Below, in pieces: positions 12,054 to 13,379 of a DNA stretch of 64,000 bases. The stretch is taken from NCBI GenBank assembly GCA_009844425.1, contig VYBN01000018.1, positions 5,092 through 69,091 on the forward strand, written 5' to 3'. This stretch comes from Gammaproteobacteria bacterium (GTDB taxonomy: Bacteria > Pseudomonadota > Gammaproteobacteria > Steroidobacterales > Foliamicaceae). Every line of letters begins with the position of its first letter. The stretch's first letter is position 1. The position numbers and the translations under genes are program-made. The notes beneath the pieces are model-generated. The model worked only from the letters and a program-made list of their open reading frames with translations, was not told the origin of the DNA and did no database searches.

Positions 12054-12055
12054 GG

Positions 12056-12085
12056 GTCTGTCGGTTGCTCCGGCACTGAGGAGAC
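12056..12085 (+). ncRNA. 5'-truncated hammerhead ribozyme copy (HHR-A): GUC site, stem I hairpin and CUGAGGA-GAC only
   Basis: GUC is at 12056-12058. Stem I is UGUCGG/CCGGCA (12059-64 / 12070-75, one GU pair), followed by CUGAGGA at 12076-82. The GAAA box and stem III are absent because the CRISPR repeat ends at 12053. Confidence 0.6.
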
Positions 12086-12119
12086 ATACCCGATTCGCAA
12101 CCGGGAAAGGAGCAAAGAG

Positions 12120-12389
12120 ATGGATTTTCACGAATTTCGGAATGGAATGACTGTGATGGACGGGCGACGATGCGTTGCGCATACCAAGGGTCCCATGGGC
12201 AGCGGTTGGTTATTGAAGGTGCACAACGCTTCATGGCTCGATCCTCGTGCGGGGCAGGGTGCCGAAAAGTTTCGCCGCGCGGGATTGCGTATTCCGCGGG
12301 ATAGAAGCTATCTGCTGGTTCCTTCTCGTGCAGAGGCGCGTCGCATCCTGAAAGCCTTGGCGAGAGGCGCGATCGAAACGTCATGCTAG
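12120..12389 (+). CDS. small basic hypothetical protein (89 aa), ORF1 of the insert
   Basis: The ATG lies 8 nt after AAAGGAG. The stop codon sits in the stem III loop of HHR-B. No family was recognised. Confidence 0.5.
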   Translation: MDFHEFRNGMTVMDGRRCVAHTKGPMGSGWLLKVHNASWLDPRAGQGAEKFRRAGLRIPRDRSYLLVPSRAEARRILKALARGAIETSC

Positions 12390-12432
12390 CCTTTGCATGG
12401 CGTCTATCGGTAGGCACCGATACTGATGAGAT
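12372..12432 (+). ncRNA. type II hammerhead ribozyme HHR-B
   Basis: AUC-GAAA (12372-78). Stem III has 9 bp (12378-86 / 12395-403) with loop UAGCCUUU. GUC cleavage is after C12404. Stem I has 7 bp (12405-11 / 12416-22). CUGAUGA is at 12423-29, and GAU at 12430-32 pairs with AUC at 12372-74. Confidence 0.8.
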
Positions 12433-12472
12433 ACTGCTAGTCTAGCCTGCTAGCAAACGAAGGAGCAATCGT

Positions 12473-12742
12473 ATGATCGAATGGAATAAGATGAAGGAGG
12501 AAGATGTGCGCGTGGTTCAGCAGATCGTTCAGCGTGCCCAGGAGATGCGTCCGGAAGTGGATGCTACGGTTCTGGGCATGGACTTGAACGCTGCGCAGAT
12601 CACGACGCCCATGGACTTGCAGGCGCTGCTGGAGGCGGATGACTACCAGTTCGCGCATGACGTGTTCGGCGTTCATCGTCACATCAATCGTTTGACGGGT
12701 GAAGTAGAGCACTTCGTTCCTCGATTCGCGATATCGCACTAG
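12473..12742 (+). CDS. small conserved phage/plasmid-type protein (89 aa), ORF2
   Basis: GGAG RBS. The C-terminal pattern MDLxxLLxADDxxFxHDVFGxxRHINRxTGxxxxFVPRFA recalls a small protein family seen on phages and plasmids (family name not recalled). Confidence 0.6.
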   Translation: MIEWNKMKEEDVRVVQQIVQRAQEMRPEVDATVLGMDLNAAQITTPMDLQALLEADDYQFAHDVFGVHRHINRLTGEVEHFVPRFAISH

Positions 12743-12796
12743 TCGAAACCGAACAGGGATGTTCGGTCTGCGAGTGACACTCGCACTGAGGAGACT
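12741..12796 (+). ncRNA. type II hammerhead ribozyme HHR-C
   Basis: AGUC-GAAA (12741-48). Stem III has 7 perfect bp (12748-54 / 12761-67). GUC cleavage is after C12768. Stem I has 6 bp (12769-74 / 12780-85). CUGAGGA is at 12786-92, and GACU at 12793-96 pairs with AGUC at 12741-44. Confidence 0.85.
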
Positions 12797-12831
12797 TTGC
12801 CGGTTTAGTCAGCCGGCGAAAGGAGCAAAAC

Positions 12832-13053
12832 ATGTCTATTCAAACTGCCCTCTACGAGGCGATAGGGAACCTTAATCACTTCTGGATGACGTTCGCGGAT
12901 CACAAGGAGGCGTTTCATGTCTTCTCCGACAACGCTCCGGAAGGATGTGATGGTGTGGAACTCATAGAGATCTACACTGAGGCACTCGCTATGGACCAGT
13001 ACGGTAAGGACAACGTCTACGACTATCTACTAGAAGCGGCGCTTGCTTCTTAG
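12832..13053 (+). CDS. small highly acidic hypothetical protein (73 aa), ORF3
   Basis: AAAGGAG RBS. Hand count gives 13 D/E against 2 K and 0 R. No family was recognised. Confidence 0.55.
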   Translation: MSIQTALYEAIGNLNHFWMTFADHKEAFHVFSDNAPEGCDGVELIEIYTEALAMDQYGKDNVYDYLLEAALAS

Positions 13054-13055
13054 CT

Positions 13056-13115
13056 GTCGAAACGCGCGCTAGCGTGCTAGCGTGCGTCCACGGTTCACTA
13101 CCGTGCTGATGAGAC
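13056..13115 (+). ncRNA. type II hammerhead ribozyme HHR-D
   Basis: GUC-GAAA (13056-62). Stem III has 11 bp (13062-72 / 13077-87, one GU pair) with loop CGUG. GUC cleavage is after C13088. Stem I has 6 bp (13089-94 / 13100-05). CUGAUGA is at 13106-12, and GAC at 13113-15 pairs with GUC at 13056-58. Confidence 0.85.
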
Positions 13116-13152
13116 TTTAGCAGGTCGTGTCTGCTAGCGAAAGGAGCCAAAC

Positions 13153-13379
13153 ATGTTAGAAGTAGAAAAGGCGACCGATGTTGCGATCATCACGCTGGAG
13201 AATCGTATCAGGGATACGAAGCAGCAGATCGCAGACTGGGGACGCGAGCGCGAGATGGCGGAGAACCCTGTGTACCATCTGGGATGGTCGAACAAGGTCT
13301 TCGCATGGGCTGCGGATGTTGAGGTGTGTGAGTATGCGCTTCACTCTTTCAAGGCGCTGGAGGAATGGCGAGAGAAAGG
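13153..13379 (+). pseudogene. 3'-truncated small ORF4 (coiled-coil-like), cut by the CRISPR repeat
   Basis: AAAGGAG RBS and ATG at 13153. The frame runs straight into the repeat at 13380 (...EEWREKG|SSPPARG) and stops only at 13404. Confidence 0.55.

Follow-up and report, generated by a model that had tools for sequence, protein, structure and literature searches.

The 64,000-nucleotide stretch analysed here (hereafter, the window) belongs to contig VYBN01000018.1 of a sponge-associated Gammaproteobacteria bacterium (GCA_009844425.1) and carries a type I-E CRISPR-Cas locus whose array holds two kilobase-sized pieces of phage-like DNA at spacer positions. The cas operon (970..10857, + strand) comprises cas3, cse1, cse2, cas7, cas5, cas6e, a Schlafen gene, cas1e (9642-10586, +) and cas2e (10567-10857, +). 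Cas1e, Cas2e and Cas6e were assigned with the NCBIfam models TIGR03638, TIGR01873 and TIGR01907, respectively, and the other called genes carry Pfam labels. A leader of 126 nt (10858..10983, +), which is 100% identical in the sister strains, separates cas2e from the first repeat of an array (10984..16026, +) made up of 38 repeats and 37 spacers. The repeat is 29 nt long (GAGTTCCCCGCCCGCGCGGGGATGAACCG). Thirty-five of the 37 spacers measure 32-33 nt; the other two, which we call mega-spacers 1 and 2, measure 1326 nt (spacer 18) and 1491 nt (spacer 36). Mega-spacer 1 (12054..13379, +) sits exactly between two perfect repeats (12025..12053 and 13380..13408, both +), as a first-pass annotation made from the sequence alone had described. 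Mega-spacer 2 (14446..15936, +) lies between a perfect repeat (14417-14445) and one with a single mismatch (15937-15965). Spacers on the leader side number 17 for mega-spacer 1 and, for mega-spacer 2, 35 in the window array and 10 to 59 in sister arrays.

Mega-spacer 1 has a guanine-plus-cytosine (GC) content of 0.55, compared with about 0.65 in the flanking chromosome. It contains four co-oriented open reading frames (ORFs), each preceded by an AAGGAG-type ribosome-binding site: ORF1 (12120..12389, +; 89 amino acids, without family match), ORF2 (12473..12742, +; 89 amino acids, DUF6874/phrog_12453), ORF3 (12832..13053, +; 73 amino acids, without family match) and ORF4 (13153..13404, +), an ORFan with 75 codons in the insert and 8 codons in the repeat. 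ORF4 has no stop codon ahead of the repeat, its frame reading ..EEWREKG up to the junction and SSPPARG followed by a stop codon beyond it. The lower GC content, the four ORFs with their ribosome-binding sites and the frame running into the repeat all agree with the first-pass description. A word-indexed search and an exhaustive HMMER search for ORF4 homologues returned ORF4 itself only, and tblastn gave nothing meaningful; the first ~20 codons have a homologue at positions 1801-1841 of L014, a 3.3-kb contig from another sponge metagenome. Since ORF4 is an ORFan, its truncation is not demonstrable by homology. The predicted structure of ORF2 is a confident four-helix model (pLDDT 95), for which a fold search of PDB found no relative, and sequence searches of ORF1-3 against PDB likewise found none. 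No strong terminator is predicted on the array strand of mega-spacer 1.

From its first to its last base, mega-spacer 2 aligns collinearly with L038, a sponge phage contig of 32 kb (L038 positions 9873-11618; 79-86% nucleotide identity). It is a fragment of a tail module on the + strand, consisting of the 3' end of a tail-terminator gene at its start, a tail tube gene (14574-15200; PHROG phrog_807), a tail chaperone gene (PHROG phrog_1442; 15398-15751, extended by a frameshift to 15861) and the start of a tape-measure gene (its first 23 codons, 15868-15936), the two terminal genes being collinear with L038. In this alignment, the left end of the insert lies within the tail-terminator gene, 118 nt ahead of its stop, and the right end within the tape-measure gene, 69 nt past its start. 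An antisense hydrophobic ORF located between the genes for the tail tube and the chaperone keeps its position in the window (15261-15380, - strand; 39 amino acids) and in L038 (~10850-10955, - strand; 34 amino acids). It is moron-like, lies in a stretch of lower GC (0.52) and, in its 39-amino-acid form, has no record as a called gene.

The spaces between the ORFs of mega-spacer 1 are occupied by predicted hammerhead ribozymes. Three complete copies with type II topology lie at 12372..12432, 12741..12796 and 13056..13115 (all +), with predicted cleavage after C12404, C12768 and C13088, respectively. Each unit runs in the same order: a stem II strand of 3-4 nt, GAAA, the stem III hairpin, UC, the stem I hairpin, CUGA(U/G)GA and the complementary stem II strand, followed downstream of the core by an extra hairpin and then the ribosome-binding site. 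The conserved core (C11.1-GAAA, A15.1-U16.1, C17, CUGANGA-G10.1) is intact in all three complete copies of mega-spacer 1 and in five of the six copies of L014, the deviating one, at 1938, having an additional U before stem II. Across these nine copies, stems I and III vary in sequence every time while their pairing is kept, and stem II covaries (AUC/GAU, GUC/GAC, GCC/GGC). The minimum-free-energy fold is a three-way junction for six of the nine, the second copy of mega-spacer 1 among them. Judged by their complete core, type II topology and covarying stems, the inter-ORF hammerheads which the first-pass annotation had pointed out appear to be genuine.

These ribozymes fall short of the usual annotation thresholds. 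In mega-spacer 1, only the third copy is scored by Rfam RF02276, at 21.3 bits, below the gathering score of 37, and in L014 three units reach 33.1, 29.9 and 27.8 bits (E-values 4e-4 to 9e-3), again under that score. Given that all L014 units lie below the gathering threshold, they would represent a hammerhead variant family missed by standard annotation. L014 itself (1-3296) consists almost entirely of units of hammerhead, hairpin, ribosome-binding site and small ORF, with six ribozymes in 2.5 kb. Prophages have been described that carry tandem hammerheads on either side of single genes, an arrangement proposed to divide long phage transcripts into mRNAs of gene length (Perreault et al. 2011, PMC3088659). 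Mega-spacer 1 resembles those cases in having type II hammerheads between single small genes. Its copies differ in scoring below the Rfam gathering threshold, in being trailed by a conserved extra hairpin and a ribosome-binding site, and in sitting within a CRISPR array, where the host transcript would be the pre-crRNA (precursor CRISPR RNA).

A fourth, 5'-truncated hammerhead opens mega-spacer 1 (12054..12085, +). It lacks GAAA and the 5' half of stem III and keeps the 3' strand of stem III, C17, the stem I hairpin and CUGAGGA-GAC. These first 32 nt correspond to the 3' part of a unit: the left end of the insert aligns at 81% with L014 280-340, within the Rfam Hammerhead_II match at L014 261-319, and mega-spacer 1 begins 19 nt into the homologous unit. 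The left end is thus located inside a truncated hammerhead, as had been noticed at first reading. An origin of the insert from RNA was considered and set aside, the left end lying not at the predicted site of hammerhead cleavage but 5 nt upstream of it.

All the data derive from assemblies of short metagenomic reads. In a de Bruijn graph, a path could, in principle, leave the array through a phage-matching spacer and re-enter it through another, and such a chimera would find some encouragement in the metagenome-assembled genome (MAG) deposited at NCBI (L001, GCA_009841345.1). This assembly has both mega-spacers and the same spacers as the window, save for a 10-N scaffold gap, which lies between the mega-spacers along with four duplicated repeat-spacer units, both lacking in the window and in the ENA re-assemblies. 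The junctions themselves, however, are recovered consistently. Logan contig L005 corresponds exactly to 12029-13405, that is, 25 nt of repeat, the entire mega-spacer 1 and 26 nt of repeat, and is found in three samples; another repeat-to-repeat Logan contig spans mega-spacer 2; and contigs L005 and L042, both of repeat-insert-repeat structure, are unbranched 32 nt from either junction. The ENA re-assemblies L002-L004, from three other samples, have arrays that match the window spacer for spacer, including both mega-spacers, and the structure is identical in ENA, NCBI and Logan assemblies. Mega-spacer 2 keeps its structure across several studies, assemblers and array genotypes. Moreover, the exact ORF2, ORF3 and tail-tube proteins were not found outside the array context across the gene-position index, and the nearest free phage is merely ~80% identical. 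The first-pass annotation had called for reads or amplicons across the junctions; contigs of independent assemblers and samples span both junctions with the same join. The inserts are genuine, and an assembly artefact is extremely improbable.

The foreign origin of mega-spacer 1, anticipated by the first-pass annotation, follows from the phrog_12453/DUF6874 protein and the hammerhead-unit architecture that it has in common with L014, whose DUF6874 protein is 80% identical to that of ORF2. That of mega-spacer 2 is seen in its collinearity with L038. By their gene content and alignments, both inserts are internal phage fragments, and they stem from unrelated phage types. Closer donors were sought. 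Neither insert had a BLASTN match among GenBank phages or PLSDB plasmids, protein-pattern scans of IMG/VR and GTDB retrieved distant relatives only, scans of JGI metagenomes for the repeat and for the ORF4 motif returned nothing, and a viral scan for the ORF4 motif was equally empty.

Prophages have been documented to integrate into CRISPR repeats (bioRxiv 10.1101/2020.10.09.333658), and the 'spacers' of at least 100 nt found in arrays of E. coli, P. aeruginosa and S. thermophilus are mostly transposons (PMC4524480). A prophage or another mobile element could accordingly have inserted whole into the array and then decayed to each present fragment. However, domain and family searches detected no transposase or integrase in the insert proteins, mega-spacer 1 has no inverted repeat of at least 14 nt and mega-spacer 2 none that is terminal, as first proposed for the former, and neither an att core nor a target-site duplication is present. 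The flanking repeats are whole, not split. Decay would further need four deletions, two per insert, each ending exactly at a repeat boundary, and we regard it as very improbable.

The array context of the inserts was compared among strains. Mega-spacer 2 is identical, or one single-nucleotide polymorphism apart, in contigs from several studies and assemblers, and it is held by at least four array genotypes, with neighbours differing on both sides. In the window, the order is spacers 1-17, mega-spacer 1, spacers 19-35, mega-spacer 2 and spacer 37; in GCA_028824615.1, 22 unique spacers, mega-spacer 2 and the terminal repeat; in GCA_028875795.1, 58 unique spacers, spacer 34, mega-spacer 2 and one other spacer; and in a second Ircinia strain, nine unique spacers, spacer 30, mega-spacer 2, one new spacer and spacer 37. 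The cas operon, the leader and the downstream genes are 99.9-100% identical among the strains with mega-spacer 2, which indicates that this insert was already present in a recent common ancestor. Its neighbours appear to have been lost since then through deletion between repeats, while acquisition went on at the leader end. Mega-spacer 1, in turn, is limited to one genotype, where it lies on the trailer side of 17 ordinary spacers. The comparison of sister arrays suggested at first reading has thus placed the two inserts in the history of the array, in which they behave as array units.

Mini-arrays and solitary repeats are known on phages and plasmids, and repeat-mediated recombination is clearly at work in these arrays, as the variable neighbours of mega-spacer 2 illustrate. 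A donor element with repeat copies bracketing each segment could then have delivered it by homologous recombination, repeat against repeat, into the chromosomal array. A repeat-flanked mobile donor of this kind, which the first-pass annotation had named as one of the findings that would overturn its proposal, was looked for and not found. Allowing up to 8 mismatches, no repeat-like sequence occurs at or near the junction-homologous sites of the relatives L038-L040 or anywhere in L014. Mega-spacer 2 has both its junctions within essential tail genes, those for the terminator and the tape measure, the left junction of mega-spacer 1 lies in a ribozyme, and the exact proteins never occur outside the chromosomal array. 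Recombination with an element-borne mini-array is, consequently, improbable, although less so than the decay of a whole element.

The ends of the inserts were examined in relation to the protospacer-adjacent motif (PAM). The E. coli type I-E PAM is AAG, and AGG, ATG and GAG function too. In the relatives, which are ~80% identical to the inserts, the trinucleotide 5' of the left-junction homologue is ATG for mega-spacer 1 (L014 277-279) and AGG for mega-spacer 2 (L038 9870-9872), and the G of these PAMs coincides with the terminal G of the repeat. Members of the E. coli PAM set occupy 8.7% of positions in L014 and 4.8% in L038, giving a joint chance of ~0.4%, calculated post hoc. The first-pass annotation had taken both ends of mega-spacer 1 for random cuts through functional units. 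With left ends that adjoin PAM-like trinucleotides in the relatives, the insert ends are probably not random.

Ordinary spacers provide a reference for these flanks. Matches to the L038 phage family were found for spacer 30 of the window (24/32) and for spacer 49 of GCA_028875795.1 (L030_sp49; 29/32 to L038), indicating that such phages are natural targets of this system. Among the ordinary protospacer matches, the flank is AGG or ATG in two of three. L030 spacer 49 also matches the tail tube gene at 14965-14996 of the window (28/32, without a PAM and mismatched at positions 1, 2 and 5); L030 itself carries mega-spacer 2, which makes this a near-self target, acquired from a related phage. Spacer 33 of L030 and spacer 10 of L029, which represent two array genotypes, are versions of one protospacer, with three differences between them, and match a Paracoccaceae prophage (L016/L017) at 27/32 and 25/32, respectively, with an ATG flank; they look like independent acquisitions from related phages. 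A match of spacer 23 to the start of ORF4, with AAG upstream, was discarded: at 20/32 identity it does not stand out from the shuffle null, whose maximum is 19-22.

Exact repeat boundaries and a PAM-adjacent left end would also be obtained, with no unusual integrase chemistry, if two adjacent same-strand spacers, X and Y, derived from sites 1.3-1.5 kb apart in a phage, had recombined with that phage. A double crossover, mediated for instance by a phage single-strand annealing recombinase acting on 32-nt arms, would replace 'X-repeat-Y' by the phage segment running from X to Y. Primed adaptation naturally gives neighbouring same-strand spacers, and the arrays repeatedly target the L038 phage family. 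Under this scheme, the last 32-33 nt of each insert would be spacer Y, and no PAM precedes them in either insert (TCT/CTC and TCC/CTC), which counts against such recombination, as Y would have to be a non-PAM spacer both times. Besides, none of the 133 ordinary spacers of the sister arrays equals an insert end, the sole significant match being internal. We consider this route unlikely, if somewhat less so than transfer from a mini-array.

We propose instead that both mega-spacers were integrated by Cas1-Cas2 as untrimmed, PAM-anchored long phage fragments, a reading to which we give an even chance. In this model, the full-site integration by the system's own Cas1-Cas2 would have been normal in all other respects: both ends of a repeat would have been attacked in a staggered manner, and the repeat would have been duplicated. 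The substrate would have been kilobase-long phage DNA, a 'prespacer precursor' left untrimmed to 33 bp, whose leader-proximal end was set through PAM recognition, as in ordinary spacers. The other 3' end, 1.3-1.5 kb away, may have been presented by a second Cas1-Cas2 complex. Once inserted, the units would have been inherited and shuffled as ordinary spacers while the array kept gaining normal ones. The first-pass annotation had likewise suggested aberrant Cas1-Cas2 integration. The exact repeat boundaries in two independent events and the PAM-like left flanks in the relatives lend support to this proposal; from them we infer the enzyme, the PAM anchoring, read in relatives at ~80% identity, and the step with two complexes.

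Several observations weigh against this model, in addition to the short-read nature of the data. The PAM argument draws on relatives ~80% identical to the inserts and not on the true donors, and the third ordinary protospacer match, that of L030_sp49, has the non-PAM flank GCG. The model does not predict that both inserts also end in a trinucleotide of the PAM set (..AAAGG at 13376-13379 and ..CAAG at 15934-15936). The frequency of this set within the inserts is 9.5% and 7.3%, and two of 133 ordinary spacers end in AAG. After the right junction of mega-spacer 2, L038 continues with GAG (11619-11621), which equals the first three bases of the repeat, making a microhomology-based join conceivable at this junction. 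Neither the PAM-set right ends nor the GAG match is explained by any of the models examined. Furthermore, a 63-bp duplex was no substrate for in vitro integration by E. coli Cas1-Cas2, which is described as needing ~33 nt (bioRxiv 10.1101/602623); the length of prespacer precursors in vivo, however, is unknown (PMC9699676).

A broader claim can be put forward more tentatively, and we consider it somewhat less probable than the origin proposed for the two inserts. Canonical type I-E Cas1-Cas2 may, in vivo, perform casposase-like full-site integration of PAM-delimited kilobase DNA, which in this lineage would concern ~1-2% of all acquisitions (two among about 135 distinct spacers), and arrays could in this way capture, and possibly express from the leader, whole foreign genes.

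Other features of the locus deserve mention. The GC content of the cas operon and leader (970-10983) is ~0.55-0.60, compared with ~0.65 in the flanking genes, consistent with a horizontally acquired island. Mean spacer GC is ~0.57 for spacers 1-17 (11013-12024), on the leader side of mega-spacer 1, and ~0.71 for spacers 19-35 (13409-14416). This shift suggests that targets moved to lower-GC phages like the donor of mega-spacer 1, starting with that insertion. Right after the terminal repeat, the length of a poly-C tract (16062-16072) ranges between 8 and 11 C in strains that are nearly identical otherwise. Other arrays with an identical repeat (OZ243929.1, Stella sp.) have solely 32-nt spacers and no long inserts. 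The Schlafen/AlbA_2-HATPase_c_4 gene (8425-9609, +; Pfam), encoded between cas6e and cas1e, shows similarity in PADLOC to the N-terminal portion of certain pAgo proteins. The same locus in two related MAGs consists of adh, the Schlafen gene and a FAD monooxygenase gene, without cas genes or an array. The interference and adaptation modules thus flank a gene that exists without them too, and the idea that it serves as a dedicated adaptation accessory is weakened.

The mega-spacers share with E. coli type I-E acquisitions the presence of foreign DNA derived from a mobile element, here a phage, between two complete repeats; a left end that is PAM-adjacent in relatives, with the repeat-terminal G at the PAM G and the PAM side towards the leader; and inheritance and loss like those of spacers. 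They differ from ordinary I-E spacers in measuring 1326 and 1491 bp rather than 32-33 bp, the ruler and exonuclease trimming having evidently been bypassed, and in carrying whole genes and ribozymes; a CRISPR RNA (crRNA) of such size is implausible in Cascade. Casposons offer a parallel, in that their casposase, a Cas1 homologue, is a Cas1-family integrase that inserts kilobase DNA with target duplication. The inserts, in contrast, have no casposase gene or terminal inverted repeats and are not self-mobile, and what is duplicated around them is a CRISPR repeat, in a canonical I-E locus. PhiAP1.1 of S. pyogenes is also phage DNA within a CRISPR array bounded by repeat sequence, but it is a complete, excisable prophage with an integrase and an 8-bp attP core that splits the repeat (bioRxiv 10.1101/2020.10.09.333658), whereas here internal fragments of 1.3-1.5 kb lie between intact repeats without any integrase. 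Long spacers made of insertion sequences or transposons (PMC4524480) produce a similarly abnormal distance between repeats; unlike them, the mega-spacers lack a transposase, terminal inverted repeats and target-site duplications, and their content is collinear with phage genomes. Full-text searches of the literature retrieved long 'spacers' described as transposons and prophages in repeats, and no description of repeat-exact kilobase phage fragments at spacer positions. The novelty would be, then, spacer acquisition with its length rule broken.

As for the host, the repeats flanking mega-spacer 1 are intact, and the neighbouring crRNAs can therefore still be made. The simplest reading of the cargo is a tolerated scar, possibly transcribed with the pre-crRNA. 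Should transcription from the leader continue through the insert, cleavage by Cas6e and the three hammerheads would yield gene-length RNAs with ribosome-binding sites. I-E spacers are taken to have a length set by the Cas1-Cas2 ruler, and programs that search for arrays split or discard those in which a 'spacer' is long. If the proposed origin is true, the integrase tolerates in nature substrates 40-fold longer, and the generation and trimming of prespacer precursors become observable through their failures. Foreign genes and ribozymes that are functional could, moreover, become fixed in arrays under the promoter of the leader. With the Cas1e and Cas2e sequences, the repeat and the leader in hand, this locus provides a natural system in which casposase-like Cas1-Cas2 activity could be examined; such activity, if real, would link the transposition of casposons to the acquisition of spacers in a living system and would be a route of gene capture so far unrecognised.

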